Assembly (NCBI GenBank): GCA_964343365.1
Contig: CAYFJI010000001.1
Location: 31,102 to 95,101 of the forward strand
Origin: an uncultured Acidiferrobacteraceae bacterium
GTDB lineage: Bacteria > Pseudomonadota > Gammaproteobacteria > Arenicellales > UBA868
Length of the DNA: 64,000 bases
Direction: 5' to 3'
Below are positions 25,389-59,124 of this stretch, piece by piece. The first letter of the stretch is position 1; the number at the start of each line of letters is the position of its first letter. Under the pieces are notes generated by a model that did not search any database, was not told where the DNA came from, and worked only from the letters and a program-made list of their open reading frames with translations. Position numbers and translations under genes: made by a program.

Positions 25389-27133
25389 TGGAGCAAATCA
25401 ATATGGCGTGGAATCAGGGCTTACTTAGCGATATTGCCTTTCATTTTTGTGGGCTAATATCGCGTCTAGAACCAAATTCCAATCACGAATTAGTGCTTGC
25501 AGCTGCCTTAGTTACAGAAAATTCTGTGTTAGGAAAAACATGTCTTGATCTAAACAAGGTCGCAGATACTCTGATTTTTGGAGAGGTTAAGCATGCCTCG
25601 TTTGTAGCCCCTACTATTAATCACTGGCTCGCGGCGTTACGTCAGTCGAGCCTGGTTGGAACTTATGAGATGGAGCGCCCTCTGGTATTGGAAGACGATA
25701 ACCGACTCTATTTGTATCGTTATAGACATTTAGAAAAAAGGTTGGCTGCTAGTATAAAAATTAGATGTGAAATGGCAGATTTTCCAATTGAAGTTAATAA
25801 AATAGAACATGTCCTATCAAAAATATTTCCTAGTCTCGAGGATAATTCAGCGCAGAGGAAGGCTGCGGCTTATGCTATTCGTAAGCCCTTAACTATCATC
25901 AGTGGTCGCCCAGGTACTGGCAAGACTTCTACGGTGGTATATATTTTGGCGTTGTTAAAAGCTCTGGAGTTGGTAGAACCAGGTCGAATAGCACTTTCCG
26001 CTCCGACAGGGAAGGCTGCAATACGGTTGCGAGAATCAGTGCGCAGAGTTTCTAGGAATATTTTGGGTGAAGGTGATTGGATGTCGATAGAGGCTATGAC
26101 TTTACATCGTTTACTCGGCCATCAACGCAATAGCGCCCGTCCTTTTTATGGCAGCCATAGACCAGCTCCCTTTGATGTTGTTGTGATTGATGAGGCTTCG
26201 ATGGGTGGCCTATCGTTGATGACCCATTTGTTTGAATCTCTTATGCCGACGTGTCGTCTAATTCTTTTGGGCGATCATAACCAGTTGTCTTCAGTAGATG
26301 TTGGAACTGTATTTAAAGACATATGTGATGCTGCGCAGTTCAAACCGTTATCAGATTCTCTAATTGAATTAAAGAAAAGTTGGAGATTTTCGAAGGGAAG
26401 CCATATAGGGCGTTTTGCTACTGCAGTGACTAATTCTGATACTAAATCTATCCTTAAAATACTTGGTGATGATATGCAATCTGAAGTCATCTTTAGGGAG
26501 TACAAATCACTGGAGCAGCTAGGAAAAATGATTGAACAACAATGTTTGGATAGCTTTTCGGATCGTATAGATATGGCTATCCGCTGTACCTCGCCACCTG
26601 AGATGTTTGAAGCGTTTTCAAAAATTCAATTGTTGGGTGTTCAAAAAAGAGGAATTGGTGGTGTCGATTCACTGAACCAAATTGTGACGAGACAGCTATT
26701 TCTTAGGGGTTTAATACCAAAAAATGAATCGTTCTATCCAGGTCAGCCCATCTTGATTACACAGAATAATTATGACCTAGGATTATTTAATGGCGATATC
26801 GGAGTTGTGTTAAAGGATGCGAACAACGGATTTTTGCAGACGATTTTTCGGGGTACCGATACCAGTTGGTTTCCTATAAAAAACCAATTACTTCCTCCGT
26901 ATGAACAAATGTATGCTATGACAGTGCATAAGGCGCAAGGTTCAGAATTTGAACGAGTTATAATTATATTGCCACTTGCCACATCTCCTATACTGTCTCG
27001 CGAGCTTCTCTATACTGCTATCACTAGAGCAACACGGCAGGTTGAAATTTGGGGTGCCAAGCCGCATCTGTATTCTGTTATAGATAATGATAGTGTCGAT
27101 AACACGAATTATCGGAATCATCTTTTTATTTAG
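25385..27133 (+). CDS. recD: Exodeoxyribonuclease V alpha subunit
   Basis: SF1B helicase motifs GRPGTGKTS, VIDEASM and TVHKAQGSEF, in the third position of the recCBD unit. Confidence 0.93.
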   Translation: MMEQINMAWNQGLLSDIAFHFCGLISRLEPNSNHELVLAAALVTENSVLGKTCLDLNKVADTLIFGEVKHASFVAPTINHWLAALRQSSLVGTYEMERPLVLEDDNRLYLYRYRHLEKRLAASIKIRCEMADFPIEVNKIEHVLSKIFPSLEDNSAQRKAAAYAIRKPLTIISGRPGTGKTSTVVYILALLKALELVEPGRIALSAPTGKAAIRLRESVRRVSRNILGEGDWMSIEAMTLHRLLGHQRNSARPFYGSHRPAPFDVVVIDEASMGGLSLMTHLFESLMPTCRLILLGDHNQLSSVDVGTVFKDICDAAQFKPLSDSLIELKKSWRFSKGSHIGRFATAVTNSDTKSILKILGDDMQSEVIFREYKSLEQLGKMIEQQCLDSFSDRIDMAIRCTSPPEMFEAFSKIQLLGVQKRGIGGVDSLNQIVTRQLFLRGLIPKNESFYPGQPILITQNNYDLGLFNGDIGVVLKDANNGFLQTIFRGTDTSWFPIKNQLLPPYEQMYAMTVHKAQGSEFERVIIILPLATSPILSRELLYTAITRATRQVEIWGAKPHLYSVIDNDSVDNTNYRNHLFI

Positions 27134-28080
27134 TTTTTATTTATTGGGTATCCCATTTTTTCAAGTTCTAGCTGAGGGTGGGATGCAGCGAGAAGAGCAT
27201 TAGATTCAGAAAAATGCTTTTTCGAAAAGTCTAAAATAATTGATGGTATAGATTGTTCATTAGTTTTGGTATGTAATTTATTAAGGCGTCTATCTATTGC
27301 TTTAAATATTCTCCAGCTCTCGGTCGAGATGATACCACCTGGATTCAGTCGAGATTTTCGGTATCTGTTCAGAATTCGGGCAAGTCCTAAAAACCGTTGC
27401 GATATTCCAACATTGATCTTAAGTTCCAAGTCAGATTCTCCCAACCCATGTAAATCCAGGGATTGATAATTACGATTAGATGCAAAATTGAGTATATCTA
27501 AAACTATCTTTGAAGCTTGATCTAGCAATTTTTCATGACAAGCTAGGTGAACATTTTCGGCGCCAAAAACATCCTCATAATATTTAACTAGATAATAGTA
27601 GTTTAGGCGATCAGTTAGCAATTTTTGTTGACTAACTCCCTCCTTTTTCAAAAAACCTGAAAGATGGTTCGTTCCTCCTAGCTGAAGATATTCTTTGTAT
27701 AAAGCCAGAATCATGCTAGGTTGATTTCGAGTAATAATAATTATTTTTGCATCGGGATCCAAATCTTTCAGCCGATGGCAATACTCTTTTGTTGATACAG
27801 TGTACGGATAAAGTAGATCGCCAGTTAACAGCTCTTCCGACAATACAAGGGTATCAAGGTTGCCCGGTGATTTGAGCTGTAACTCATTGAAGGAGCGATT
27901 AGCATGAGCATAAGAATATGTAAGTTCCCCGATTGTAATGATTTCATTCATAAAATCATACGTTTCTTCGGGATTGGAATGCCGAGGAAAGAATATTGAA
28001 TTAGCTTTAGGGAAAATCGAATTTTGCAGGAAAGTACTACCGGTCTTCATGAAACCAATATGAAATACAGACTTCAACAT
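27130..28080 (-). CDS. Sulfotransferase-family-like protein
   Basis: An N-terminal P-loop-like 5'-PSB motif (FHIGFMKTGSTFL) and a later ITRNQPSMILALY segment resembling the 3'-phosphate-binding RxP...S.Y motif. Assignment is by motif only. Its stop codon overlaps the recD stop. Confidence 0.45.
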   Translation of the reverse strand: MLKSVFHIGFMKTGSTFLQNSIFPKANSIFFPRHSNPEETYDFMNEIITIGELTYSYAHANRSFNELQLKSPGNLDTLVLSEELLTGDLLYPYTVSTKEYCHRLKDLDPDAKIIIITRNQPSMILALYKEYLQLGGTNHLSGFLKKEGVSQQKLLTDRLNYYYLVKYYEDVFGAENVHLACHEKLLDQASKIVLDILNFASNRNYQSLDLHGLGESDLELKINVGISQRFLGLARILNRYRKSRLNPGGIISTESWRIFKAIDRRLNKLHTKTNEQSIPSIILDFSKKHFSESNALLAASHPQLELEKMGYPINKN

Positions 28081-28233
28081 ATTGTGTATTGCTGGTCTTT
28101 ATTGATAGCATTCTCTGACCGGGCATTGCTAATTAACGATAATAAATTTGGAAGAGATTTTTTGTTCAAATGCATATCTAAACGAATGTGGTTGCAATGA
28201 GTACGACTATAGAGCGCAAATTTAAGGATTTTT

Positions 28234-29346
28234 TCATGACATTTCAGTTATTAAATGTTGAACTTGTTCGCCTATGGCAAGACTGGCAGATAGCGAGGGA
28301 GAGGATAAACCAAGAAGATCGATCCAACTATTGGTTGTGTCTTTCTCAATTATTAAATCTCTGGAAGAATTCCCAGTCTGCTCAAGTTTTGGTGAAATTC
28401 CCGCAAAATATGGTTGTAAATCTTCCCTTTGAATTGTTGGAAGAAAATTTCTCACTGAAGAAAAAACAAGATCGACAGTGTTTTCTGCTACAGACCAATC
28501 ATTAGGTTTAGTTAGATATGAACAAACTGGGCCAAACTGAGTAATGCCATCCAACCTAGGAATGCAGTCTACTCGTGGCTCTGGAAACCCGGGGACAGTT
28601 GCGTTTATCACAATGTGTTTAAACAAGTTTTTTTTTGTGCTACAGGCAAAAGAGCCCTTCTCCCAGAATATCTTTGGTTGTTGTTTATGGGGGAAAATTT
28701 GATTTCTTAAATTTAAAGCCGATAGCCCAGCAGCGTTCACTATATAGCGCACTTTGGGTTTATAGTCAGTTTGTGATTCAGTGATAATTTGCCAAAAATT
28801 ACCAGACCTAATCGCATTTGTAAATTTAGTGCTGTGCGCAACGATTACGTTTTTAGATTGCGCCACCTCTATCAATCTATGCGTAAATTCGATTCCGTCA
28901 AAAATTCCCGTAGATTTTGAAAATAAGGCAGCTTTTGCAACCACATTAGGAACCATTTTTCGAAAAAATTTTTGGTCATAGACAATAAGATCTTTTACTC
29001 CATTTTCTTGCCCGTTTTGAACCACCTTTTCTAATGCGGATAATTGATTTTCAGTATTGGCAATTATAAATTTTCCACACCTACGATGTGGCACATTGTA
29101 TTTTTTGACGAACTCCCACAATAATTTGTTACCTCGTACAGCTACTCGTGCTCTCATACTTCCCGGTGCATAATAGCAGCCACTATGAACCACCCCTGGG
29201 TTATGACCAGTGATTTTTGAGGCGAACGTTCGCTCTTTTTCTAGTACGATGATTGATAAGCCGTATTTTGAGAGCGTGTAAGCACAAGCCGCCCCAACGG
29301 CACCCCCTCCAATAATTGCTATATCAGCGTCTAATTTACTTTGCAT
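28234..29346 (-). CDS. FAD-dependent oxidoreductase, L-2-hydroxyglutarate oxidase (LhgO)/DAO family
   Basis: An N-terminal GxGxxG (IIGGGAVGAA) and TGHNPGVVHSGCYYAPGSMRA, collinear with LhgO ([21 protein letters not shown]). Confidence 0.7.
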   Translation of the reverse strand: MQSKLDADIAIIGGGAVGAACAYTLSKYGLSIIVLEKERTFASKITGHNPGVVHSGCYYAPGSMRARVAVRGNKLLWEFVKKYNVPHRRCGKFIIANTENQLSALEKVVQNGQENGVKDLIVYDQKFFRKMVPNVVAKAALFSKSTGIFDGIEFTHRLIEVAQSKNVIVAHSTKFTNAIRSGNFWQIITESQTDYKPKVRYIVNAAGLSALNLRNQIFPHKQQPKIFWEKGSFACSTKKNLFKHIVINATVPGFPEPRVDCIPRLDGITQFGPVCSYLTKPNDWSVAENTVDLVFSSVRNFLPTIQREDLQPYFAGISPKLEQTGNSSRDLIIEKDTTNSWIDLLGLSSPSLSASLAIGEQVQHLITEMS

Positions 29347-29348
29347 AT

Positions 29349-30428
29349 CTAATCATTAAATTGTAGTGCAATAAAGTTTTTATGAAACTGCTCCATGTGT
29401 TCTTGACTAGATCCGCTAACTGTGATTCCAGTATCAAAAGGTGGTAGCCAACCACTACGAATATGAATATTCCTTTTTTTTAGTTGTGTCTGAATTGAAT
29501 CTACAATAAAAGTTTCTCCAAGTTCAACGAAAAGGTAATTAGAAACATTGCCACCATAGACTATAAAACCTTTATCAAGAAGTTTTTGTTTTAGCCAGGT
29601 CAGAGATGTCTTAATAGTGCTAACGTAGTTATCCACTATTTCTGGGTTTTCCATGAAAAAACTTGCAATTTCACCATTGGTCGTGCTTACCTCATATCCT
29701 GAACGGTATTTTGAAATGCGTTCAATGATATGTTGCTGACTCATCATAAATCCAAATCTTATTCCAGCTAAACCGAAAGCTTTTGAAAAAGACCGCAACA
29801 CTATAATATTTTCAAACTCACCAATCAAATTTTTTGCTGTTGGAGCGCCGAACGAGAAGTAAACTTCATCTATGATAAGAAGTACACCTTTTTCAAGCAG
29901 GTGTTCAGCAAGATGTCTGACATAGCTAAGATCAAAGAAGTGCTCAACTGGCATGTCAGGATTGGCAACAAATACCGCAAACGTATTTGAATCAACTTTT
30001 TCAAAAAACTCTTCTTCGTTGATGGTATGGTCTCTTTTGTAGAGGATCTTTCGAGAGCCAATGTTGTATAAATTAGGATATATCGAATATAGAGCGAATG
30101 TAGGATAGGGTATAACCACATTTTTCCCGGGACTCCCGAAGGCCTCATAAACCATTTTGATGGCTCCTGAAACTCCCTCAGTAATAAAAAGGCAATTTCG
30201 GTCAAGCTCTACCCAATTTTCTAATTTAGAATAATATTTTTCTACGTCTGGATAGTGACTGAGCGAGCACTGCGCGATTTTTTCCAGAATTCCACGCTTG
30301 ACGTCTTCTGAAAAAGGGTATGCTCTTTCATTTCGATCAATGCATATGTCTTCAAAGATATTTCTGTCACAATTACCCCTCTTTCTTTTTATATCCACTA
30401 AGTCCCTAAGATTAGTATTTTTTTTCAA
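29349..30428 (-). CDS. PLP-dependent aminotransferase class I/II, HisC/CobD-like
   Basis: The SFSKAFGLAGIRFGF motif holds the PLP lysine in the HisC-family context. ~360 aa. Its stop lies 2 nt upstream of the flavoenzyme start. Confidence 0.7.
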   Translation of the reverse strand: MKKNTNLRDLVDIKRKRGNCDRNIFEDICIDRNERAYPFSEDVKRGILEKIAQCSLSHYPDVEKYYSKLENWVELDRNCLFITEGVSGAIKMVYEAFGSPGKNVVIPYPTFALYSIYPNLYNIGSRKILYKRDHTINEEEFFEKVDSNTFAVFVANPDMPVEHFFDLSYVRHLAEHLLEKGVLLIIDEVYFSFGAPTAKNLIGEFENIIVLRSFSKAFGLAGIRFGFMMSQQHIIERISKYRSGYEVSTTNGEIASFFMENPEIVDNYVSTIKTSLTWLKQKLLDKGFIVYGGNVSNYLFVELGETFIVDSIQTQLKKRNIHIRSGWLPPFDTGITVSGSSQEHMEQFHKNFIALQFND

Positions 30429-30442
30429 AAACGAATCCCTAT

Positions 30443-31174
30443 TTATTTTTGCCAGAGTTGATCTAAATCTTCAAGGGTAATGCTAGGCTTTTCCGATTCT
30501 TTTTCAATGCATATCGTAATCATAAGAATATCCTGGGTAGGCGTTACTGCTTGAGGCGTGGGTTTATGACGATAACCATATACTTCCAGTGAATCACCGC
30601 TAGATATTAAGGTTTTAATAAATGTTTTCGCCTCTTTGATGTTAATGATGCAGTAAGGCATGATTGTTTCACCATCCCACTTGTTATCGAATGCAACTCT
30701 TAGATAAGAAACTTTTGGATTCTCAATTGTTTCTCCGGGGTGGATCCGAAGGTCAAAGACAATGTATTTACGGGAGATGGCATACATTTGTTCTATGATT
30801 TTTCTCCAGTGCAGTAAGTGATGCAGAACTCCAAAACAAAATACAAAATCCATTGTGCTATTGCTGAAGGGAATGTTGTAGCCATCGTAACAAGTAAAAA
30901 TTGCCTGTTCACCATATTTAATTTTTGCGAGCGCTACAAATTTTTCAGAAATATCGATACCATGGTATTTAATTTTTTTATTTTTTTGTGAGCAAAAAGC
31001 GTAGCCTCCCCCACAAGCACAGCCAATGTCTAAAACCGTTTCCACAGCTGAAAGGTGCTTAATAAGAAACCAACTTTCAGATTTTGATAGATCTTCTAGT
31101 GTGTTTCTATTTTTCGAGTAGTGGTATTCGCTACCACTCGTTACTTCGTAGCCGTTTTCAATATGTCTTAGCAT
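30443..31174 (-). CDS. Class I SAM-dependent methyltransferase
   Basis: Motif I is VLDIGCACGGG, followed by an acidic post-I residue (YHGIDIS). 243 aa. Confidence 0.7.
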   Translation of the reverse strand: MLRHIENGYEVTSGSEYHYSKNRNTLEDLSKSESWFLIKHLSAVETVLDIGCACGGGYAFCSQKNKKIKYHGIDISEKFVALAKIKYGEQAIFTCYDGYNIPFSNSTMDFVFCFGVLHHLLHWRKIIEQMYAISRKYIVFDLRIHPGETIENPKVSYLRVAFDNKWDGETIMPYCIINIKEAKTFIKTLISSGDSLEVYGYRHKPTPQAVTPTQDILMITICIEKESEKPSITLEDLDQLWQK

Positions 31175-31272
31175 TTTTTCAAGATCTAACCCCTAAAGAA
31201 TTAGGTAGCAAATATCAATATAGCAGACTTATGTGAACAGTGCGCTTAAGCGAAAATTTTTTCTTCCTATTG

Positions 31273-32763
31273 TCAAGATTGACTGCGTTTGCTATCTGCA
31301 GGTTGCGTAAGGTGTTTATAAATTCTTTCCGACACTTGATCACTCAGAAAACAATAATCACGGTCTAGATGACCTAATTCAGGAATTACTGAAGAATGCT
31401 GAATTTGTAAAACCTTATTTGCAAATTCTTGGTAAGAGGTAAGACTTAAGTCTTGGAGATCGCGAGTGACGAATTGATAATTTCGACCTCCGGGATTTAG
31501 AAAATACCCCAATCGACCATATCCTCTAAGCTCTATAACAACCGTTGACGCCCAAGAAACCGTTATACCCGATCGGAACGCATGCTCATAGGTATTTTCA
31601 CTCTCGGGAATGATCTGGACATTACTGTCTTTAAAAAAATCATCTTCAAATTGACCTTTATAACCGGGATGATGTTTGAATCCTAACCTCAAGTCGGAGT
31701 GTTTCAGAGATAAGGCATGCAACCATTTGAGATGCTCCATATAATCGTCAAGATTAGTGTCATAAGTATTCGTATAACGTAGTACTTCGGGGGTAGTGAA
31801 TCCGTTGCCGCCAATACAAATTACGTGCCATCTCACTTCCGGGTCGTTAGAAATAGATCCTACACTTGCCTCAAGAAAAAATGATCCAACTGGTTTAACA
31901 TTATCAAAATTAGCTCCTAGTTCGATGGCTGAATTAGCCGTTTTTAAGCCGTAGGTGAAGAAAATATCAGCGTCATAAAAAAATCCATTTGGTCCAAACT
32001 GATGAATATTTTTTTGAATCACAGCGGATATTTGGCCACCGTAAAGTTTAAATACATGATTTTTCACCGAATCGGTATGATAGTGTTGAAAGTTGATTAG
32101 GTATTTGGCCTTTTTATTTTGCAATAAACTTTTGTAAAAAAAGAACGAATCTATAATTTGCATGGCAATGTAGATTAAATTAGTGCCGATTTCACGAGAA
32201 ACTATTTTATGAAGCCGGAGTCCTGATATTAAAGCAAATATTTCCGAATTTTTTATGTGATAATTTCGGTAGCCATGACGCCAGCCTCGTCGAGCTTTAG
32301 TGATTATAGAAATATTAGGGAAGTCCAAAGGCAGGCCAAGAGTGGAAACAACACACACATTGCGAACTCCAAATAGTTGGATCAATTTCTTATATCTAAG
32401 TAAATGAATGGTAGTTTCAACTTCGATTAAGAGATGATAGTTTTCTGGATCGTTTTTTTTTGTCTCTCTAAACCCATATATGTAAGCTAAGTACCCCAGA
32501 TAGACTAGCTGTGCTCTGGGGATACATTCTGTCAACAAATTCTCTTTAAATCCCTTGCGGTCAATATAGTCAACTCCTTCAGCTAGCTTCCTCATCAAAA
32601 ATTGCTTTACGACAGGTTTAGGCAGGTCAAAATTTTCATCAAACCAGTTATACCAAGGCTCTAAAGCGTCTTGCGCGGCAAATTCTTGGATAAACAGATG
32701 TAGCTCTCTTATGGATTCGTTAATCGACTTTTTCCTATCATGCCTATAGTCTTTAAAATCCAT
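31273..32763 (-). CDS. Hypothetical protein (496 aa), possibly a GT-B-like transferase
   Basis: A long uninterrupted ORF inside an operon-like array. I recognise no signature motif. The C-terminal half shows a motif order (QHYH ... DIFFTYG ... HHPG ... SWASTVVIEL) shared with the 464-aa orphan at 51732-53123. Confidence 0.55.
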   Translation of the reverse strand: MDFKDYRHDRKKSINESIRELHLFIQEFAAQDALEPWYNWFDENFDLPKPVVKQFLMRKLAEGVDYIDRKGFKENLLTECIPRAQLVYLGYLAYIYGFRETKKNDPENYHLLIEVETTIHLLRYKKLIQLFGVRNVCVVSTLGLPLDFPNISIITKARRGWRHGYRNYHIKNSEIFALISGLRLHKIVSREIGTNLIYIAMQIIDSFFFYKSLLQNKKAKYLINFQHYHTDSVKNHVFKLYGGQISAVIQKNIHQFGPNGFFYDADIFFTYGLKTANSAIELGANFDNVKPVGSFFLEASVGSISNDPEVRWHVICIGGNGFTTPEVLRYTNTYDTNLDDYMEHLKWLHALSLKHSDLRLGFKHHPGYKGQFEDDFFKDSNVQIIPESENTYEHAFRSGITVSWASTVVIELRGYGRLGYFLNPGGRNYQFVTRDLQDLSLTSYQEFANKVLQIQHSSVIPELGHLDRDYCFLSDQVSERIYKHLTQPADSKRSQS

Positions 32764-32776
32764 TGAAACAGGGCAA

Positions 32777-33457
32777 TCAGTTATCAGATATTTTATGTTG
32801 GTGTATTAACTCACAAAGTTCAAAATCTTCCTCAGAGTCAATATCCCACGATATTATTTGATCCAGTAAATAAAAGTTTGGGTTAGAGCCCACCAGTGTC
32901 GCCTGCTTAATCAAATCTTCGCGTTTTCGTATGCTGATGGCAAAACTTAAAATAATAGCCGGATCAAGATCCTGAGAGCGGGGCCAAGGATAAGCCTTAA
33001 AATTCAATGGTTGATTCTTCCAAAAAATATTACTACGAATCTCATAGGCTGAAAGAAGACAGTCAAAACTATCTGACATCGAATCATATTGTTTAAGTGC
33101 TTCGGTGTACGCTGCACTAGTTACCAGGGGATTTGTTACATTTATCCAAGCAATGTGGTCGCCCGAGATAGAGTTTCCAATATAGGAATACACTTCACTC
33201 ATTGGTACTTCGCTAGTTGAATAATCAGGATCTCTCACATGAGTTTCGTAGCCATTTTCACTTGCTATTTTTAAGATCCTCTCATCTTCTGATGAGACAA
33301 TAATTGAAGAAAATCCCTCGGCATCCTTAAGTTGCTCCAGCTTTAGTTTAAGCAAGTTGGTTCCAGAGAAATGGCGAATGTTCTTTTGATGTACGCGATC
33401 TGATTCACCTTTTACTGGAATCAGACCGACAATCTCTTTCTTCATACTAGTACTCAA
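32777..33457 (-). CDS. Cytidylyltransferase, acylneuraminate cytidylyltransferase (NeuA/KdsB-like) family
   Basis: N-terminal GLIPVKGESDRVHQKNI (compare IPARGGSKRIPxKNI), then SSEDERI ... NVTNPL, collinear with CMP-sugar synthetases. Confidence 0.65.
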   Translation of the reverse strand: MSTSMKKEIVGLIPVKGESDRVHQKNIRHFSGTNLLKLKLEQLKDAEGFSSIIVSSEDERILKIASENGYETHVRDPDYSTSEVPMSEVYSYIGNSISGDHIAWINVTNPLVTSAAYTEALKQYDSMSDSFDCLLSAYEIRSNIFWKNQPLNFKAYPWPRSQDLDPAIILSFAISIRKREDLIKQATLVGSNPNFYLLDQIISWDIDSEEDFELCELIHQHKISDN

Positions 33458-33477
33458 TTACTGGTTCGGTAAAATTA

Positions 33478-34977
33478 CTATTTGGTTAGAGCGTATTTTC
33501 TATCACCACTTGAGTTTTTTCCACTCATCGAAAACGCTTGATATTTTTCGCGACTCGCTTTTCTTCGCTCTCGGCCAAGGTCGTTTAATTCTTGATTGAG
33601 ATTTTCTGCTTCCAATTTGAGCTGATCGGGTGCGATGTCGTGTGGAACTATATTGACATTAGTATATGTCATCCGCGTTACTTTAAAGTTGGGAACGAAA
33701 AGGTTGTTTTCTTTAACCAGATCCCAAATAGGTGTTCCTGGTAAAGGTTGAGTGAGAGAAACAGAATAGCTGTCAGCATCCATCTTTCGGGCAAAATTAG
33801 CAGTCGCTTCACGCAGAATCTTTGTTTCAAAGGGAAATCCCATCATAAAATTTGCATGAACCAGTAGACCTTCATCATGTGCAATTTGACAGGTAGCTAA
33901 TACTTCTGAATGATCGAGTCGTTTCTTAGTTACTTCGTTCAGAAAATCCTGATCACCGTGTTCCACAGATATGGCAAATTGTTCAAAGCCTGCCGAAGCC
34001 ATTGCTCGGTACATTTTTGCCCTCTTGCCTCTATTGACAGGCATGTCAGCTCTTACTGCGTTCGGTAATGTAATTCTAAGATTGAATTCAGCGATTCGTT
34101 GGCAGATATCAATTACCCTTTTATAGTTTACCGTGAAATTATCGTCTAATATTTGAAGTTCCTTAATATTAAATTTTGTTATCAATTTTTCTACTAGTTC
34201 AGCAACCCGCACCGCAGAAAGCGCACGAAACGCGTTGCCGGTGAATTCGGGACTGGTGCAGAAATAACAGTGTTCTGGACATCCTCTCGATGTCATGATG
34301 CTACCAACCCTACCTGATTTCACAAATGGATTGTGGGGCATTCCAATCTCAAAATATCGCTCCATCGGAAATAAATGGAAAGCAGGATCAGGCAAATCAT
34401 CTAATTTTTTATTAAATGCTGGAGATGGATTTGAAATAATTTTTTTATTTTTTCGGTATACTAGTCCGTCCACATCAAAATAGTTTTGCCCTGAAAAATA
34501 CTTGTCCGAGAATTCTAAAAAGGTGTATTCCGCTTCGCCTTTCAACACGAAATCTATACAAGTTACTTCCCTCATAATGTCGACCGCGGTGTTTGAAGCG
34601 TGGTTTCCTCCCATCAGTAAAGGCGTATTAGGAAATCTTTTCTTTAGGCCGTTGGCAACCGAGAATGCACACTCAGTCATTGACGAAAAAAGGGAAGTGA
34701 TTCCAATTAGATCAGGGTCAAAATTTTCTAATCGACGGACAATGTTTTCGGTTTCTAATCCATATTGAACAAAGTTTGGGTCATCATTAAGCTCAACAAT
34801 TGTGTCGTATCCTTCGACTACCGCATCGATGCATAGAACATTACCAGCATAGCCATTTTCTTCGAGCACTGCAGCAAGGTATGCCATTCCTAGAGGTGGC
34901 TGAGCTTTCCTCACTTGGTTTTTATCACTGATGACTTGAGGAGAAACCAGAGCTATTCGTCGGTTTGCGTTGTCCAT
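33478..34977 (-). CDS. B12-binding-domain radical SAM enzyme (class B)
   Basis: An N-terminal Rossmann-like cobalamin-binding region (IALVSP...LGMAYLAAVL...IGITS) and a radical SAM CxxxCxxC (SRGCPEHCYFC). 499 aa. Confidence 0.85.
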   Translation of the reverse strand: MDNANRRIALVSPQVISDKNQVRKAQPPLGMAYLAAVLEENGYAGNVLCIDAVVEGYDTIVELNDDPNFVQYGLETENIVRRLENFDPDLIGITSLFSSMTECAFSVANGLKKRFPNTPLLMGGNHASNTAVDIMREVTCIDFVLKGEAEYTFLEFSDKYFSGQNYFDVDGLVYRKNKKIISNPSPAFNKKLDDLPDPAFHLFPMERYFEIGMPHNPFVKSGRVGSIMTSRGCPEHCYFCTSPEFTGNAFRALSAVRVAELVEKLITKFNIKELQILDDNFTVNYKRVIDICQRIAEFNLRITLPNAVRADMPVNRGKRAKMYRAMASAGFEQFAISVEHGDQDFLNEVTKKRLDHSEVLATCQIAHDEGLLVHANFMMGFPFETKILREATANFARKMDADSYSVSLTQPLPGTPIWDLVKENNLFVPNFKVTRMTYTNVNIVPHDIAPDQLKLEAENLNQELNDLGRERRKASREKYQAFSMSGKNSSGDRKYALTK

Positions 34978-35049
34978 AATCCTTATTTAACCATTTGATT
35001 CATAGCTCAACCATAGGCTAGAGGAAAAATTATCGAAAATTTGCCGGTT

Positions 35050-35961
35050 TTACGGTAATTTTTGAGTCGATGCCGAATTTGTTGTACTAACTAGTGATAG
35101 AAAAATACCCACGCTGATGATGACAGCTATCCCTGCCCATGCCCAGGTATCAGGTAGGTCACCAAAAATCCAGTATCCTAAAACTGCCTGCATGATGATT
35201 TCCGTATAGAGATAGGGTGCCAAAAGTGAGGCTTCCGCAAATTCAAATGAACGAATCAGGAGTAGATGCCCCATCGCGCCTGTTAATGCCATGGTCACCA
35301 TTAGTATAAAGTCAGTGTATGTTGGTGTTATCCAAAACCAGGGTATCAGCAAGGTCATGACTACGAAGCCTCCTACAGATTGATAAGAGAGCGTAACCAA
35401 TGGTGGAGCTTGACCAGCTAAGAAGCGAGTTGAGAGAATGTAAAGAGCAAAAAAAGTAGCGGCTGCAAGAGCCAGCAGAGAAGCCCAGTGAAATCCATCT
35501 AAACCGGGACGTACAATCATTAGGACGCCAATTAAGCCGAAGCCTGATGCTAGCCATCGATTTGTTGGGATTTTTTCTTTTAGAAATAGCGCGGATAGAG
35601 CTACTAAGATTACCGCATCAAAGAATATGATAGCTATCGCGTTTGCTAGAGGAATGAATTTTATTGATCCCCAAAAACAGGCAGTGCACGCTAAAAGAAG
35701 CAATCCCCTAGTTGTTTGCAAAACTGGTCTTTCCGTGATGAAAGACTTTGGTCCATGTCGCCACAGAGCCAAAGGCGCGATAACTATGAAGTGGAAAAAA
35801 AACCTTGCCCAAACGAGTTGCATTATCGAGTATTGGTCGCTCAATGATTTGGCAATTGCATCCATAATAGGAACAATTAGCATTGCTATAACAAGCAAGA
35901 CGATACCAACGATTTGTTTTTTTTGTGTTGAAGAGTGATCCATGGATGTATGATTTTTCAC
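35050..35961 (-). CDS. DMT-superfamily (EamA-type) transporter
   Basis: About 10 predicted TM helices arranged as two EamA-like halves. 303 aa. Confidence 0.8.
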   Translation of the reverse strand: MKNHTSMDHSSTQKKQIVGIVLLVIAMLIVPIMDAIAKSLSDQYSIMQLVWARFFFHFIVIAPLALWRHGPKSFITERPVLQTTRGLLLLACTACFWGSIKFIPLANAIAIIFFDAVILVALSALFLKEKIPTNRWLASGFGLIGVLMIVRPGLDGFHWASLLALAAATFFALYILSTRFLAGQAPPLVTLSYQSVGGFVVMTLLIPWFWITPTYTDFILMVTMALTGAMGHLLLIRSFEFAEASLLAPYLYTEIIMQAVLGYWIFGDLPDTWAWAGIAVIISVGIFLSLVSTTNSASTQKLP

Positions 35962-36078
35962 ATCAAATTTGGTTTACAGATACTCTCTGTTCATGAAGTT
36001 ACTCAAATTAGCTTTTAAACTATGTCTTACAAAAATGTTCGCAAGTTAAGTTAAACAAATAGAGGGTGGATTAAGAAT

Positions 36079-37128
36079 TTAGACTTCGCTCAGATTTGGC
36101 ACTTCATCACTAAGCTTATAAACTTTTTTCCATTTTTCGTCTGCGCAATAGATTTTGTAAACTAATTCCATCGTATGCAAAGCTTCTTCTGCAGATCCGT
36201 TGATGATTTTTTCATTATTTATAATAGCCTCAGAAAATTCTTCTATCTCACGTTCCCAGGACGGGTCACTGGTATAACGCTTTGCAATTTCCATAGGGCT
36301 ACCGGAATCTTGCTCTGATTGGTGGATTATTGTAATAGTTTCAGCACCATAACTACGTGTGCCGGTTAATAATCCAGCTAGAACGATGGCGCCTTTTTCA
36401 AGAGTAATTTCGAGATTGAAACGGTGCTGCCATTGCGTTGCAGAGGAGTGTAGCATTGCAACGATCCCATCGTCAGTCCGCATAATAGCGTATGCATTGT
36501 CTTCAACGTCATGATTCCAGTAGTTGTTCGATATAAAACTGAATACTTCAGTAAATTCACCTGCAAAAAGCCTCATGAGGTCGACCATGTGAATGCCTTG
36601 ATCCAAAAGAATTCCACCGCCTGCAATTGATCGCTGAGTTCTCCACTCTGAAGCGAAGTTAATTATGGCAGATTTACCATAAACTCCCCTTAAGTTGACT
36701 ACTTTTCCAAGAGTGCCGCTTTTAACGAGTTGAAAAGCTTCGACTACCGAATCATGATAGCGGTGGTTAAAGCCATATTTTAACTGTAAGTTTGGGTGTT
36801 TTTTTTGGCATCGGATTACCTTCGCAATGTCATTCAAATTTTGACCAGGTGGTTTTTCGCAAAAAACATGAAGACCTCGTTTTAAACCTGCAATAGTAGC
36901 AGCCGATGCGACATCATTACTGAGACATACAAATAAGACATCAAGTTCTTCTTTGAGTAGTTCTTCATAGTCCACAAAAGATTTAATGCCAGGTTCTGCT
37001 AACGCAGATTCTCTAAATTTTCGGTCGGACACAGCAATGGTTTTGAAAGTCGAAGTTTTGTCAACATACTTTCTACGTAATTGGCCAACGACACCATATC
37101 CTGCAAAACCTACGCGAAGTTTTCTCAT
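36079..37128 (-). CDS. Gfo/Idh/MocA-family NAD(P)-dependent oxidoreductase
   Basis: An N-terminal Rossmann motif (VGFAGYGVVG), the EKP motif (FCEKPPG) and GFNHRYH, typical of the family. Confidence 0.85.
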   Translation of the reverse strand: MRKLRVGFAGYGVVGQLRRKYVDKTSTFKTIAVSDRKFRESALAEPGIKSFVDYEELLKEELDVLFVCLSNDVASAATIAGLKRGLHVFCEKPPGQNLNDIAKVIRCQKKHPNLQLKYGFNHRYHDSVVEAFQLVKSGTLGKVVNLRGVYGKSAIINFASEWRTQRSIAGGGILLDQGIHMVDLMRLFAGEFTEVFSFISNNYWNHDVEDNAYAIMRTDDGIVAMLHSSATQWQHRFNLEITLEKGAIVLAGLLTGTRSYGAETITIIHQSEQDSGSPMEIAKRYTSDPSWEREIEEFSEAIINNEKIINGSAEEALHTMELVYKIYCADEKWKKVYKLSDEVPNLSEV

Positions 37129-37496: not shown

Positions 37497-37525
37497 AATG
37501 GTTTCCTCAATTGGATGTTTGTTGT

Positions 37526-46898: not shown

Positions 46899-48623
46899 AT
46901 GTCAAAAAAGATAGATTCTTCGGCTATTTTAGCAATAACTTTCGGTGGGCATGATACTTCAGCAGCTTTAATGATAGGGGATGAGCTTGTGGCGGCGTGT
47001 GCACAAGAGAGGTACACATTGGACAAGCACAGCCGTCGATTTCCCCTTGATGCAATAAACGATTGTTTATCAATAGGCAAGCTAAATATTACAGATCTTG
47101 ATCAAATAGCTTTTTGTGATGATACCAAATATTTGGTTCGAGAACGTTATCTTAGACCCGCTCTTGAAGACAATGAACGACTTAACTTTTTGTTGAATGA
47201 TATTGAAAAAATTCCAGAAACGTTGTCAATTGACGATAGGATACGTGATGAAACTGGTTTCACGGGAGAGATTAGGCAATATCGACATCACCTTTGTCAT
47301 CTCGCAAGCGCATATTATCCAAGCGGTTTTAATGAGGCCTTATTAGTTAGTTATGATGGCATGGGAGAGTGGGAAACTGGTTTGTTGGGGACTGGAAAGG
47401 ATGGCGAAATCAATGTACAAGAAAATCAAGTTTGTTTTCCCCACTCATTGGGATTGGTATATTCTGCCATTACTTTTTATCTTGGTTGGCGGCACCATTG
47501 CGATGAAGGAATAATTATGGGATTGGCACCGTATGGTGATCCAAAAGCTAATATTCCTGAATCTAGCCGAACCTATATTGGACTAATGGAAGAAATGATT
47601 GTTGAAACAGGAGATTTTAATTATGAGATTGATCAACGTTGGTTTTCTTATTACCGTGAACGAAACAAATGGGTTAGTGATGAATTCATAGAGTTGATGG
47701 GACCTAAACGCGAATCAAATACAATGGTAAATCCCCACCATATGAATTTAGCGGCGGCGTTGCAGATGAGATTAGAAACGGTGGTTCTTAATCAGTTGAA
47801 GCGTGCGAGAAAACAATTTGACATTCCACGCCTTGCTATGGCGGGTGGAGTTGCTTTGAATTGCTCGATGAACGGAAAGATTGAATCAAGTGGCTTATTC
47901 GATGAAATATTTGTTCAGCCAGGTAGCGGAGATGATGGAACAGCGATCGGTGGTTGTTATCTGGCTCGAAAAACGTTCAACCGAAGTATGAAACCAGTTC
48001 GTATGAATAATTACTATAAGGGTTATCGTCCAAGGGGAAATGAGATCGATGAAGTTGCGAATAGCTCTGATTTGGAATACACGAAACCTCATGATTTTTA
48101 TGGAGTCATTGCGGAGCGACTTGCGTCGGGGAAAATTGTTGCTTGGTTTCAAGGAGGGGCTGAGTTCGGCCCACGTGCACTCGGGAACCGCAGTATTCTT
48201 GCCAAACCATATCCTGAATCAATGAAGGATTTTATTAACGAGAGAGTAAAGTTTCGAGAATATTTTCGTCCCTTTGCTGGCGCTATATTATTTGAACATC
48301 TAGCGGATTATTGTGATATCTCGCAATTAAGCCCCCACATGTTGATTGCCTGTAAGATCCATGAAGAAAGGCAAAAAGAGGTTTCTGCTGTTGTTCATGT
48401 AGATGGAACTTGCCGGATTCAAACGGTTGACGAGAGTGATAACTTGCGTTTCAGGAAATTGATAGAAGCATTCTACCGATTGACAGGTGTTCCGGTCATT
48501 TTAAATACATCTTTTAATGTTAAAGGTCAGCCGATCGTAAATACTCCCCAACAGGCAATCGATACTTTTAAGAAAACAAATTTAGATTGTTTAGCTCTTG
48601 GAGATTTGTTTTTTGAGAAATAG
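46899..48623 (+). CDS. NodU/CmcH-family carbamoyltransferase
   Basis: N-terminal ILAITFGGHDTSAAL, metal-binding HHLCHLASAY, and a C-terminal YrdC/Kae1-like half (GGVALNC, GPRALGNRSIL). 574 aa. Confidence 0.85.
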   Translation: MSKKIDSSAILAITFGGHDTSAALMIGDELVAACAQERYTLDKHSRRFPLDAINDCLSIGKLNITDLDQIAFCDDTKYLVRERYLRPALEDNERLNFLLNDIEKIPETLSIDDRIRDETGFTGEIRQYRHHLCHLASAYYPSGFNEALLVSYDGMGEWETGLLGTGKDGEINVQENQVCFPHSLGLVYSAITFYLGWRHHCDEGIIMGLAPYGDPKANIPESSRTYIGLMEEMIVETGDFNYEIDQRWFSYYRERNKWVSDEFIELMGPKRESNTMVNPHHMNLAAALQMRLETVVLNQLKRARKQFDIPRLAMAGGVALNCSMNGKIESSGLFDEIFVQPGSGDDGTAIGGCYLARKTFNRSMKPVRMNNYYKGYRPRGNEIDEVANSSDLEYTKPHDFYGVIAERLASGKIVAWFQGGAEFGPRALGNRSILAKPYPESMKDFINERVKFREYFRPFAGAILFEHLADYCDISQLSPHMLIACKIHEERQKEVSAVVHVDGTCRIQTVDESDNLRFRKLIEAFYRLTGVPVILNTSFNVKGQPIVNTPQQAIDTFKKTNLDCLALGDLFFEK

Positions 48624-48763
48624 GAGAGAATTGCACGGTATTTCAATTTAGAATACATTTTCTTCAAAAACAATGTTCAAAATAGAAAAATTATTAGAAA
48701 TGTATTTGAGTTTTAGAAAATACTATCAACAAAAAATTTTGGTTAATAGACTCTAAGTATAGT

Positions 48764-49681: not shown

Positions 49682-49897
49682 AAGAGCAGGAAGGCCTTTC
49701 TAGGCAGCATACTGAAAAACAGGTGTAGGGGGCGAGAATAGTCAATTTCTGGACTGTTAAACGCGCATAATGATTTGTATATATAAATAAGGATGAGCGC
49801 TCTGAAATGGAATTTTTATTCGGTTCTGTTGTTGCTACCCAGCTTCGCTTTAATCTATACGTAGGGCGTAAGCAAGAAAAATCTCGGTCATAGCAAC

Positions 49898-51709: not shown

Positions 51710-51731
51710 AAAATTGCTAAAGAATATTTAC

Positions 51732-53123: not shown

Positions 53124-53154
53124 AAGCTAGAGAAAATTGTTTAAATTATAAAAA

Positions 53155-53973: not shown

Positions 53974-54065
53974 CTTGTTGGCTATTCGCGAATCACATAT
54001 TAAAAAGTTATTAAACATTCTTAATGGTAGCGACTATTATTTTCAAAATTATCGGGAAATGAGAA

Positions 54066-54476: not shown

Positions 54477-54517
54477 AGCTTTCTCTAATCAAAAAGCTTA
54501 ACCTAATCGATCTCATC

Positions 54518-55645: not shown

Positions 55646-55679
55646 AATCTCAAGAATCTTGATTAGCTGATAACTTACT

Positions 55680-59054: not shown

Positions 59055-59124
59055 TTATCTGATAGCCACAAAATGATCTCCACAGATGAATTTTTTTGCA
59101 AATAACCCTACCTAGGTTTTTAAG

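Follow-up and report, generated by a model that had tools for sequence, protein, structure and literature searches.

Sugar aminotransferases are normally of the DegT type, and the formation of Kdo8N provides an analogue for the amination of an ulosonic-acid unit. Amination of a sugar by WbpB, a Gfo-family enzyme, together with an aminotransferase is accompanied by production of 2-hydroxyglutarate (PMC8651671), and Fom3 methylates a CMP-linked substrate, CMP-phosphonate (PMC8158854). The window analyzed here is a 64,000-nt stretch from an uncultured marine Acidiferrobacteraceae bacterium (contig CAYFJI010000001.1, positions 31,102-95,101). Within it lies a nine-gene region for which no corresponding characterized locus was found, in keeping with a preliminary description that had matched it to no known pathway. 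An ulosonate synthase is absent from its cassette, and none was found elsewhere in the window. The absences listed earlier for the region itself were checked by using tblastn and family searches. NeuB was not detected by tblastn, and PEP mutase, KdsA, DegT, Wzx/Wzy, GT2, and GT4 were not found inside the nine-gene region.

Layout and gene families of the nine-gene region

Nine ORFs, all on the minus strand, were identified between 27130 and 37128 in the ORF list of the window. The spacers had been given as 2-150 bp and were found to be 153, 2, 14, 98, 13, 20, 72, and 117 bp in coordinate order (2-153 bp). At one end, recD (25385-27133, plus strand) is convergent with the first gene (27130-28080) and overlaps it by 4 bp. 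At the other, the minus-strand run goes on past 37128 with DUF1244, an IMPDH-related gene, and an SDR gene (spacers of 50 and 29 bp), so the upstream operon boundary is uncertain. The nine genes are as follows:

27130..28080, minus strand: sulfotransferase-like protein (316 aa; Sulfotransfer_3, E 8e-4, 20.1 bits, cutoff 27)
28234..29346, minus strand: DAO-family FAD-dependent oxidoreductase (370 aa; DAO 1.6e-44; 2 bp after the aminotransferase gene)
29349..30428, minus strand: HisC/CobD-like PLP enzyme (359 aa; Aminotran_1_2 2e-27)
30443..31174, minus strand: class I SAM-dependent methyltransferase (243 aa; Methyltransf_25/11/12)
31273..32763, minus strand: 496-aa "orphan" with a predicted GT-B fold (no sequence match in Pfam, NCBIfam, or PDB)
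32777..33457, minus strand: CTP_transf_3 cytidylyltransferase (CTP_transf_3 1.4e-12; 226 aa from a TTG start)
33478..34977, minus strand: B12-binding radical SAM enzyme (499 aa; B12-binding and Radical_SAM domains; cluster motif CPEHCYFC)
35050..35961, minus strand: EamA/DMT membrane transporter (303 aa; EamA 2.9e-22)
36079..37128, minus strand: Gfo/Idh/MocA NAD(P) oxidoreductase (349 aa; GFO_IDH_MocA and C-terminal domains)

The families claimed for these genes were each verified by using Pfam and NCBIfam, with the orphan matching nothing and the sulfotransferase call being weak. The catalytic motifs of the enzymes are intact. Given that no enzyme in the region reaches an equivalog cutoff, every substrate is a guess. 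The radical SAM enzyme, probably a methyltransferase, is nearest among curated families to the Sden_1168 P-methyltransferase (219 bits, cutoff 575), with HpnJ and BchE next; its PDB matches are TokK, AprD4, and CysS, and its homologues at 60-70% identity are located in O-antigen/capsule-type clusters. The cytidylyltransferase, for which gene callers place the start at an ATG at 33445 (four codons in, 222 aa), is nearest to PseF/NeuA (PseF 72.6 bits, cutoff 205.7), with CMP-Neu5Ac synthetases as PDB matches. The HisC/CobD-like enzyme, an aminotransferase or possibly a decarboxylase, has an intact lysine motif (SFSKAFGLAG), scored 171 bits against hisC (cutoff 277) and 118 bits against CobD, and matched histidinol-phosphate aminotransferases in the PDB; it falls in its own subfamily (~40% identity) in environmental genomes.

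The DAO flavoenzyme scored 181 bits against LhgO (cutoff 299) and 147 bits against the type-2 glycerol-3-P oxidase (cutoff 460, full-length alignment) in NCBIfam, and its PDB matches are 3dme, an L-2-HG dehydrogenase, and GlpO. The Gfo/Idh/MocA protein comes closest to iolG (99 bits, cutoff 355) and to archaeal UDP-GlcNAc 3-dehydrogenase, and it also has matches in the PDB. The sulfotransferase-like protein carries an N-terminal GFMKTGSTFLQ, similar to the PAPS 5'-phosphosulfate-binding loop; its orthologue in locus L044 (68% identity) passes Sulfotransfer_1 (23.7 bits, cutoff 22), and the sister cassette likewise ends with a sulfotransferase-like gene.

By eye, the region had been judged more AT-rich than its flanks and had been called an accessory island. 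Its GC content of 0.385 (window, 0.390) falls at the 40th percentile among 10-kb windows, its tetranucleotide distance to the window average is the minimum within the window, and no signs of recent acquisition were found at the region in composition, tRNA, integrase, or flanking repeats. The proposed check of presence and absence among relatives placed the region in every contig from organisms at ≥ 90% identity. Neither the AT-richness nor a recently acquired island was thus borne out. Promoter-like and terminator-like sites occur in the region at chance frequency.

Conserved cassette, orphan family, and second polysaccharide cluster

The seven genes from the radical SAM enzyme to the sulfotransferase-like protein recur in the same order and orientation in another marine organism (loci L013 and L044), with 60-79% protein and 71% nucleotide identity and different flanking genes. 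The SAM methyltransferase is 72% (L013) and 68% (L044) identical to the copies in the same position. In the sister locus L013, no EamA gene precedes the radical SAM gene, and both EamA and Gfo/Idh/MocA are outside the conserved cassette, though co-oriented with it. Of the single unit of nine genes put forward earlier, seven were therefore retained; judged by gene order, this core is a portable, coherent cassette.

Parts of the cassette also recur in distant relatives. The aminotransferase-DAO adjacency is kept in L044, L045, and L046, and the aminotransferase-flavoenzyme pair turns up in Omnitrophota-type clusters whose other genes include B12 radical SAM and methyltransferase genes, a cytidylyltransferase, and clear sulfotransferases. 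L045 and L046, which are mutually syntenic and were counted as one independent lineage, contain aminotransferase-DAO-Gfo, B12 radical SAM, methyltransferase, CTP_transf_3, and sulfotransferase genes beside legionaminic-acid-type genes; the Gfo gene following their aminotransferase-DAO pair is non-orthologous to that of the window.

Word-indexed searching across 5.8 billion proteins recovered 9 relatives of the orphan, and a full HMM scan recovered 451 representative clusters; the orphan is a member of a large family lacking any database model, not a singleton. Its AF2 model (pLDDT 80, pTM 0.82) has a GT-B fold, and Foldseek matches were to UDP-GlcNAc 2-epimerases, PseG, a polysialyltransferase-CDP complex, and TagF-like capsule polymerases, the best being epimerases/hydrolases and not transferases (TM-scores 0.4-0.6). 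At the sequence level, similarity to Capsule_synth, Epimerase_2, and Glyphos_transf did not reach significance. A cytidylyltransferase lies near the orphan-family gene in 18 of 29 loci (CTP_transf_3 in 16; a TagD-type cytidylyltransferase with a CDP-alcohol transferase in two), and the loci without one are short contigs. The identities of the two proteins co-vary (cytidylyltransferase/orphan 73/65% in L013, 58/47% in L017, and 52/40% in L007). In seven loci the orphan is paired with an HMGL-type aldolase and a KdsB-subfamily enzyme passing its cutoff, and in others it is accompanied by NeuB or HpcH aldolases. From the model and this habitual adjacency, the orphan is plausibly a cytidine-nucleotide-dependent transferase, and the earlier suggestion that it transfers the unit is to that extent sustained.

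A second polysaccharide cluster lies further along the window:

46899..64000, plus strand: second polysaccharide cluster (Pfam and NCBIfam)
Start of the cluster, plus strand: carbamoyltransferase, methyltransferase, then ABC exporter (49898-51709)
Next, plus strand: 507-aa protein without assigned function and radical SAM-SPASM protein (53155-53973)
Rest of the cluster: small protein, split heparinase II/III-like gene, AsnB-like, GT2, deacetylase, FnlA/FnlB-like enzymes, GT4

This cluster runs ~7 kb past the window end, up to a Bac_transf gene. In at least five loci (L022, L025, L026, L027, and L038), orphan homologues share clusters with homologues of its radical SAM-SPASM protein (54-60%), AsnB (35-50%), GT2 (40-49%), and ABC exporter. 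We propose that the second cluster is functionally linked to the cassette and supplies the ABC exporter, GT2, and GT4; this link, like co-transcription of the cassette, is suggested by gene order in other genomes only. The word pathway thus fits as far as coherence goes, but the unit is not self-contained and is tied by comparative context to the 46.9-64+ kb cluster.

A candidate tailoring branch for a surface glycan

The region may well encode a cytidine-nucleotide-dependent branch of cell-surface polysaccharide synthesis that tailors, activates, and transfers a unit. The product looks like a cytidine-activated building block that carries amino and methyl groups and probably sulfate, from a pathway undescribed so far. 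Only the gene families and gene linkage are observed, and from these we infer all of the following steps. The hydroxyl beside the carboxylate or phosphate of a small acidic precursor would be oxidized to a ketone by the DAO flavoenzyme and/or the Gfo/Idh/MocA dehydrogenase, and the ketone would be converted to an amine by the HisC-like enzyme. An N- or O-methyl would then be added by the SAM methyltransferase, and an unactivated carbon methylated by the B12 radical SAM enzyme, possibly on a cytidylylated intermediate (cf. Fom3). The cytidylyltransferase would join the unit to CMP, the GT-B protein would move it onto a glycan made and ABC-exported by the 46.9-64+ kb cluster, and the sulfotransferase-like protein would sulfate it. 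Sulfation, as suggested earlier, is plausible given the L044 orthologue that passes Pfam and the clear sulfotransferases of the distant analogue L046. Such a pathway would use a transferase family described in no database.

Tentatively, the unit could be a sugar acid of the 3-deoxy-2-ulosonic-acid type with its skeleton coming from elsewhere, such as the housekeeping Kdo pool, which would account for the synthase-less cassette. The HMGL-type aldolase/KdsB-subfamily, NeuB, and HpcH neighbors of the orphan family all make ulosonic acids and so support this identity. Against the tailoring branch as a whole stands the lack of an ulosonate synthase in both cassette and window, and we know of no HisC-like aminotransferase or DAO flavoenzyme that tailors sugars.

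Alternative readings of the product

In a less likely reading, the unit is a three-carbon amino-alcohol or amino-acid phosphate in place of a sugar, N- and C-methylated and activated as a CDP-alcohol; as a candidate unit, a C3 amino-alcohol or hydroxy-acid phosphate falls only slightly behind the ulosonic acid. Here the DAO enzyme, aligned end to end with the type-2 glycerol-3-P oxidase and matching GlpO in the PDB also, would oxidize glycerol-3-phosphate or a similar C2-hydroxy phosphoester. The HisC-like enzyme would aminate the ketone to serinol-phosphate or a relative, which suits the natural HisC substrate, a 2-oxopropyl phosphate. The GT-B protein would then be TagF/LicD-like and make a phosphodiester decoration, consistent with the TagF-like polymerases among its Foldseek matches, and a free hydroxyl would be sulfated. 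PGDH-like 2-hydroxyacid dehydrogenase and HAD phosphatase neighbors in 11-12 of the 29 orphan loci point to C3 phospho-acid chemistry; L027 and L029 combine the TagD-type cytidylyltransferase and CDP-alcohol transferase with an Asp/Glu racemase-methyltransferase, and an Ldh_2 2-hydroxyacid dehydrogenase is additionally present in L045 and L046. A precedent that favors this chemistry is Cj1437 of a capsule pathway, by which DHAP is transaminated to (S)-serinol-P (PMC11800397). A dedicated oxidase, however, seems unnecessary because DHAP is abundant, and the orphan lacks a significant Glyphos_transf match. The window cytidylyltransferase is nearest to PseF/NeuA and is 52% identical to one directly 3' of a NeuB gene. 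To our knowledge, all characterized CTP_transf_3 enzymes activate a hydroxyl of a 2-ulosonic acid and not a phosphate monoester.

It is unlikely that the product is a soluble small molecule (an osmolyte, signal, or antimetabolite) exported by EamA, with the GT-B protein serving as an epimerase/hydrolase or small-acceptor enzyme. The co-oriented EamA exporter is directly upstream, the best structural matches of the orphan are UDP-GlcNAc 2-epimerases and PseG, one member of its family weakly matches Epimerase_2, and lipid-carrier and polymerase genes are absent from the nine-gene region itself. EamA is nevertheless outside the conserved cassette, essentially all longer orphan loci have a polysaccharide context (ABC exporters, GT2, Wzx, TagF-like, LicD, AsnB-like), and close radical SAM homologues also lie within polysaccharide clusters.

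Highly improbable is a cassette that tailors and then transfers a phosphonate/phosphinate head group from a PEP mutase encoded elsewhere, through cytidylylation, P- or C-methylation by the radical SAM enzyme, and transamination or decarboxylation by the CobD/HisC-like enzyme. Among curated families, the radical SAM enzyme comes closest to a P-methyltransferase, a 52% homologue carries the JGI label "phosphonoacetaldehyde methylase", Fom3 acts on CMP-phosphonate, and EamA weakly matches a phosphonate-associated membrane protein. Yet the P-methyltransferase and PhpK scores (219 vs a cutoff of 575 and 79.5 vs 600 bits) are far below cutoff, and the nearest radical SAM relatives lie in ordinary deoxysugar and nonulosonate clusters. 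The PEP mutase family was unmatched among window ORFs ≥ 120 aa, and the PepM motif EDKx5NS occurred zero times in 544 kb (the window and 46 related loci).

That the nine genes are merely adjacent is scarcely credible. In its favor, co-transcription is read from gene order in other genomes only, promoter- and terminator-like sites occur as often as expected by chance, and EamA and Gfo are not conserved alongside the other seven genes. Chance adjacency is nevertheless largely refuted for the seven-gene core, whose order and orientation are kept in a different context with 71% nucleotide identity; the aminotransferase-DAO and cytidylyltransferase-orphan pairs recur in distant lineages, and several spacers are just 2-20 bp.

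Gene content and flanks of the region

Nine open reading frames (ORFs) were listed on the minus strand between positions 27130 and 37128 of the window, with spacers of 2-153 bp; recD is convergent with the first of them and overlaps it by 4 bp. Each family call made for these genes in the preliminary description was borne out by Pfam and NCBIfam, with no hit for the 496-aa orphan protein.

Genes of the region in order of position, all on the minus strand
From 27130: sulfotransferase-like protein, a weak call, KTGST motif intact in translation
28234-29346: DAO (FAD) flavoenzyme, nearest L-2-hydroxyglutarate oxidase and type-2 glycerol-3-phosphate oxidase, GGGAVG intact
29349-30428: HisC/CobD-like PLP enzyme, motif SFSKAFGLAG intact in translation
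Next: class I SAM methyltransferase (Pfam, NCBIfam)
31273-32763: 496-aa orphan, no Pfam or NCBIfam match
Next: CTP_transf_3 cytidylyltransferase, nearest PseF and NeuA
Next: B12-binding radical SAM enzyme, motif CPEHCYFC intact in translation
Next: EamA/DMT transporter (Pfam, NCBIfam)
36079-37128: Gfo/Idh/MocA oxidoreductase, nearest family iolG (Pfam, NCBIfam)

Equivalog cutoffs (NCBIfam) were reached by none of the nine proteins, which leaves their family membership certain but their substrates uncertain. The reported absence of NeuB-type synthases and PEP mutase was confirmed by tblastn and family scans of the window: two NeuB sequences gave a best E of 2.8, and no family hit to NeuB, KdsA or PEP mutase was obtained among window ORFs of at least 120 aa (Pfam, NCBIfam). 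The same databases detected no nucleotide-HexNAc 4,6-dehydratase, DegT-type aminotransferase or N-acetyltransferase within 27130-37128; the FnlA-like dehydratase gene at 60254-61279 is part of the second polysaccharide cluster and not of this region. The PepM signature EDKx5NS did not occur in any of the six reading frames of the window or of 46 related loci, which together amount to 544 kb. In the window, no TagD-type (PF01467) cytidylyltransferase was found using Pfam and no riboswitch or other RNA using Rfam, and promoter and terminator scans gave chance-level results only.

The impression that the region is AT-rich was not upheld by calculation (GC of 0.385 vs 0.390 for the window, the 40th percentile of 10-kb windows), and by tetranucleotide usage no other part of the window lies closer to the window average. 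No tRNA, integrase or flanking repeat was detected in or beside it; composition and borders thus give no sign of a horizontally acquired genomic island. The flanks consist of housekeeping genes, with RecBCD on one side and DUF1244, an IMPDH-related gene, an SDR, DsbC, two AhpC, HisG and PriA on the other; RhlB and Rho are also among the housekeeping genes of the window, and together with RecBCD, DsbC and PriA they point to a gammaproteobacterium. The DUF1244 and IMPDH-related genes (37179-39025) lie on the same strand as the Gfo/Idh/MocA gene with spacers of 50 and 29 bp, and because of this close, co-oriented spacing the operon may start upstream of the boundary at 37128. The IMPDH-related protein, which may be the true guaB product or that of a paralogue, scored 388 bits against the IMPDH cutoff of 481.5. 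An HTH-WYL-WCX regulator (17400-18374) is located directly upstream of recC-recB-recD, and a trio at 12710-16676 encodes a thiamine-pyrophosphate enzyme (PRK08199 subfamily), a HalD-like 2OG/Fe(II) oxygenase and a convergent AMP-binding ligase.

In a presence/absence check among close relatives, every contig with a RecD of at least 90% identity carried the region. Identical proteins were found only on marine metagenome contigs (TARA and other surveys), always with the same neighbours, and scans of the reference collection of species-representative genomes with the orphan profile and with RecD gave no relatives. The plasmid collection contained no homologue of the orphan or of the aminotransferase, and for the radical SAM enzyme none closer than about 27% identity.

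The seven-gene cassette and the orphan family

A single other marine sample supplied two contigs (L013 and L044) that together match window positions 34960-27170, a span reaching from the radical SAM gene through the sulfotransferase-like gene; nucleotide identity is 71%, gene order is kept and the proteins are 60-79% identical. The seven-gene core of this sister locus is flanked by unrelated genes, its outer flanks showing no relation to recD or EamA. Given these synteny limits and flanks, the conserved unit was taken to be seven portable genes (hereafter the cassette), without EamA and Gfo/Idh/MocA. Directly upstream of the sister cassette, where its synteny with the window ends, is a 78-nt direct repeat (L013 positions 294-371 and 521-598, two copies, 86% identity); ARAGORN found no tRNA there.

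More distant analogues were found in L046, an Omnitrophota MAG, and L045, a contig from groundwater, which are syntenic with each other and therefore count as one lineage. Their HisC-like enzymes (39-41% identity) and DAO flavoenzymes (35-36%) are followed by Gfo/Idh/MocA, Ldh_2, B12 radical SAM and, further along, CTP_transf_3 genes; the stretch before CTP_transf_3 holds a methyltransferase in L046 and a GDSL lipase-like gene in L045. L046 additionally carries two clear sulfotransferases, and both sets adjoin legionaminic-acid-type genes (LegG-, LegF- and PtmE-like in L045, HisH/HisF-like in both). From this content, the set of enzyme families has therefore recurred independently. No gene-for-gene counterpart was found among characterised loci, and the literature yielded no usable match for this gene combination or for the Shewanella P-methyltransferase.

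Just nine relatives of the orphan came up when 5.8 billion proteins were searched by a word index. An exhaustive profile scan returned 451 representative clusters at E ≤ 1e-3, so the family is real and of moderate size. It had no sequence match in Pfam, NCBIfam or PDB, including a profile search of PDB sequences with a 52-member alignment. The AlphaFold2 model (pLDDT 80, pTM 0.82) comprises a helical N-terminal domain and two Rossmann-like halves, and the predicted fold is GT-B: Foldseek matches (TM-scores of 0.4-0.6) included UDP-GlcNAc 2-epimerases, PseG, a CDP-bound polysialyltransferase and TagF-like capsule polymerases (8qoy, E 6e-6; 8a0m, E 9e-5), with many other GT-B proteins. The predicted GT-B fold with two Rossmann domains is shared with GT38 polysialyltransferase (5wcn), KpsC/KpsS and the TagF-like proteins, from which the orphan differs by an extra helical N-terminal domain of ~100 aa and by having no significant sequence match; UDP-GlcNAc 2-epimerases were also placed slightly higher by Foldseek than TagF-like or GT38 proteins.

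PF04464 (Glyphos_transf) matched neither the orphan nor its 52 relatives, and hhalign of the family against two Glyphos_transf (TagF-type) proteins was not significant (probability 3%). In this same non-significant comparison, the C-terminal K-H-H(P) strand end and S-x-x-S-T-x-x-x-E helix start of the orphan aligned in register with the K-x-H and DYS motifs of the TagF type. PF05159 (Capsule_synth, the family of the KpsC/KpsS beta-Kdo transferases) did not match the orphan and weakly matched 3 of 52 family members (best E 8.9e-4), and Epimerase_2 weakly matched one member. At the sequence level the orphan would thus appear to stand outside the TagF and KpsC families. We infer that it acts as a cytidine-nucleotide-dependent transferase; its family resembles GT-B transferases of this kind in habitually adjoining cytidylyltransferases.

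Neighbourhoods of the orphan family were gathered from 29 loci and their ORFs clustered. Of these, 16 contain a CTP_transf_3 gene, 2 more (L027, L029) combine a TagD-type cytidylyltransferase and a CDP-alcohol transferase, and the other 11 are short contigs. Cytidylyltransferase and orphan identities to the window co-vary (73/65% in L013, 58/47% in L017, 52/40% in L007), and the L007 enzyme, 52% identical to CTP_transf_3 of the window, is encoded directly 3' of a NeuB gene. Recurring neighbours are an HAD phosphatase and an NAD-dependent epimerase (12 loci each), a PGDH-like 2-hydroxyacid dehydrogenase (11), an ABC exporter (9), a radical SAM-SPASM protein and an HMGL-type aldolase (7 each), and heparinase II/III-like and AsnB-like proteins (6 each). 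The aldolase adjoins a KdsB-type cytidylyltransferase in 5 of its 7 loci, and the one KdsB-type representative tested (L014) scored above its curated cutoff. NeuB occurs in L007/L008 and L042, and an HpcH aldolase in L009. The shared theme is cytidine-nucleotide activation inside polysaccharide clusters.

Orphan loci without CTP_transf_3
L027, 12230-15492
L029, 2217-5458
L041, 1760-3815

Instead, these encode a cytidylyltransferase of the TagD type together with a CDP-alcohol phosphatidyltransferase-like protein and an Asp/Glu racemase; in L029 the racemase is fused to a methyltransferase, and clustering indicates the same for L041. All three sets adjoin a PGDH-like gene, and in L027 a sulfatase-family protein and a mannitol dehydrogenase are encoded as well. 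Such TagD-type loci suggest that the donor differs between orphan subfamilies.

Tailoring enzymes and the identity of the unit

The radical SAM enzyme exceeded the cutoffs of PF02310 (60 bits) and PF04055 (66 bits), and its CPEHCYFC motif is of the CxxxCxxC form; by domains and motif it is a class B (cobalamin-dependent) enzyme with predicted methyltransferase activity. Its nearest curated family is a P-methyltransferase (Sden_1168; 219 bits vs a cutoff of 575), and the PhpK model gave 79.5 bits against a cutoff of 600. Its homologues of 60-70% identity belong to ordinary clusters of the O-antigen or capsule type, one with hexose 2,3-dehydratase, FdtA, GT2 and Wzx and another with NeuB and a WecA-like transferase, and the enzyme is read as a probable glycan-tailoring C-methyltransferase. 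The sulfotransferase-like protein scored 20.1 bits, under the Pfam cutoff of 27; the call is supported because its L044 orthologue (23.7 bits) exceeds the Sulfotransfer_1 gathering score of 22. In the clear L046 sulfotransferases, an RSGTT loop aligns with its KTGST loop; hhalign of the sulfotransferase-like pair against these L046 proteins was not significant, and the single-sequence predicted structure of the window protein had a pLDDT of 34.

All of the chemistry is inferred from what was observed, namely family assignments, gene linkage and comparative context. The DAO flavoenzyme and/or the Gfo/Idh/MocA enzyme would oxidize a hydroxyl of the unit to a ketone, which the HisC-like enzyme would transaminate; SAM-dependent and radical methylation would follow, the cytidylyltransferase would cytidylylate the unit, the GT-B orphan would move it onto a glycan, and sulfation would probably come last. 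It is possible, though doubtful as a whole, that the orphan founds an unrecognised family of cytidine-nucleotide-dependent GT-B transferases and that the cassette builds a chemically undescribed surface-glycan decoration, either a sulfated, N-/C-methylated amino unit of the serinol-phosphate or amino-hydroxy-acid type or an amino-ulosonic acid, with flavoenzyme/HisC-type amination and with B12 radical SAM methylation at the cytidylylated stage.

As to the unit itself, we lean, at clearly less than an even chance, towards a 3-deoxy-2-ulosonic-acid-type sugar acid made elsewhere. To our knowledge, all characterised CTP_transf_3 enzymes use 2-ulosonic-acid-type substrates, and this identity is favoured because it fits those substrates, the aldolase- and NeuB-containing relatives, and the precedent of Kdo8N, which is produced in Shewanella through tailoring by KdnA/KdnB. 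The region shares with Kdo8N the logic of oxidation followed by transamination, using a HisC-like aminotransferase and a DAO or Gfo oxidant rather than an iron alcohol dehydrogenase. With the CMP-nonulosonic and CMP-Kdo pathways (NeuA, PseF, LegF, KdsB) it shares a CTP_transf_3 enzyme nearest PseF/NeuA, a dedicated transferase (here the GT-B candidate) and surface-polysaccharide genes nearby, but it has no NeuB/PseI/KdsA-type synthase, PseB/LegB dehydratase or DegT aminotransferase. Its CTP_transf_3 domain scored 48 bits (Pfam cutoff of 22.6), while the PseF model gave 72.6 bits vs 205.7, about one third of the cutoff. The region appears to work like a CMP-sugar decoration pathway, yet by its sequences it fits neither a Neu/Pse/Leg nor a phosphonate locus.

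A C3 amino-alcohol or hydroxy-acid phosphate is a less likely identity, at about one chance in a few. It agrees with the full-length match of the DAO flavoenzyme to glycerol-3-phosphate oxidase, the HisC substrate type, the PGDH and HAD neighbours, the TagD-type loci and the Cj1437 precedent (PMC11800397). In the Campylobacter jejuni capsule system for serinol-phosphate and ethanolamine-phosphate (Cj1437/Cj1436/Cj1435), a PLP enzyme likewise converts a C3 keto-phosphate to an amino-alcohol phosphate, and loci related to the region have an HAD phosphatase; however, attachment in C. jejuni is an amide made by an ATP-grasp ligase with no cytidylyl activation, and radical SAM enzyme, flavoenzyme and sulfotransferase are lacking.

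The flavoenzyme could instead recycle 2-hydroxyglutarate from a WbpB-like Gfo dehydrogenase (PMC8651671). WbpB/WbpE (WlbA/WlbC), which carry out 3-oxidation and transamination of a sugar, likewise pair a Gfo/Idh/MocA dehydrogenase with an aminotransferase, the 2-hydroxyglutarate-oxidase-like flavoenzyme could clear a by-product of 2-oxoglutarate/2-hydroxyglutarate cycling, and removal of D-2-hydroxyglutarate is needed for LPS synthesis (PMC8651671). The stereochemistry would not match, however, because WbpB makes D-2-hydroxyglutarate, cleared by a FAD_binding_4-type D2HGDH, whereas LhgO-like enzymes, the type found here, act on the L form; moreover, the aminotransferase is not of the DegT type, and Gfo/Idh/MocA is five genes away and outside the cassette.

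The remaining probability falls to another small acid, a soluble product or a phosphonate, the last being largely rejected because no PEP mutase was found in the window or, by motif, in 46 related loci. Fosfomycin biosynthesis (Fom1/Fom3) does resemble the region in encoding a B12 radical SAM methyltransferase beside a cytidylyltransferase. It has a MobA-like cytidylyltransferase in an antibiotic context, whereas the region has no PEP mutase or other phosphonate gene and a CTP_transf_3 enzyme in a polysaccharide context. FrbH, of the FR-900098 pathway, offers the precedent of a CMP-linked substrate being used by a PLP enzyme of the CobD/HisC type. For the proposed methylation of a CMP-linked intermediate, Fom3 sets the precedent that B12 radical SAM methylation is possible on such substrates (PMC8158854).

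What is new here is a transferase family without a database model and an unusual flavoenzyme/HisC-type amination couple; nucleotide-activated decoration of surface polysaccharide is already known in kind. Hypervariable glycan loci with uncharacterised enzymes are common. Surface glycans of abundant uncultured marine bacteria shape susceptibility to phage and grazers, and are a source of methylated and sulfated sugars in marine dissolved organic matter. The portable seven-gene cassette provides a defined target for discovering new decoration chemistry and an entry point to the ~450-cluster transferase family. The proposed pathway would extend both B12 radical SAM action on cytidylylated intermediates and their HisC/CobD-type PLP tailoring beyond antibiotic pathways; if it is an ordinary variation on nonulosonate or Kdo decoration, its value would lie mainly in better annotation.

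The second polysaccharide cluster

A plus-strand polysaccharide cluster of about 24 kb runs from 46.9 kb to the window end and for ~7 kb beyond (in L020, to about locus position 17100), separated from the region by ~10 kb of housekeeping genes.

Gene content of the second cluster, plus strand, from 46899
First genes: NodU-like carbamoyltransferase, methyltransferase, ABC exporter, 507-aa protein (51600-53123, between the ABC exporter and radical SAM-SPASM genes, no family hit)
Middle: radical SAM-SPASM, heparinase II/III-like (apparently split: 54518-55645, 375 aa, no Pfam hit, and 55680-56420, 246 aa, Hepar_II_III_C), AsnB-like, GT2, deacetylase
Last genes: FnlA/FnlB-like enzymes, GT4s, Bac_transf initiating transferase

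In five related loci (L022, L025, L026, L027 and L038), an orphan homologue shares a cluster with homologues of these genes (radical SAM-SPASM 54-60% identity, AsnB 35-50%, GT2 40-49%). The simplest reading of this comparative gene order is that the region contributes a decoration to the glycan that the second cluster builds.

The GC content of the second cluster falls to 0.33-0.35 in parts, a composition more deviant than that of the region. The 507-aa protein, called as 463 aa on metagenome contigs, contains in its C-terminal part a GATSSVLTEAALLGCP stretch of the kind typically seen in nucleotide-binding domains of GT-B proteins; it was tested as a paralogue of the orphan and is not one. 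The heparinase-like gene has undivided counterparts of 616-640 aa in L022, L025 and L026, with which both of its halves cluster, and L020 and L021, which are independent contigs, show the split as well.
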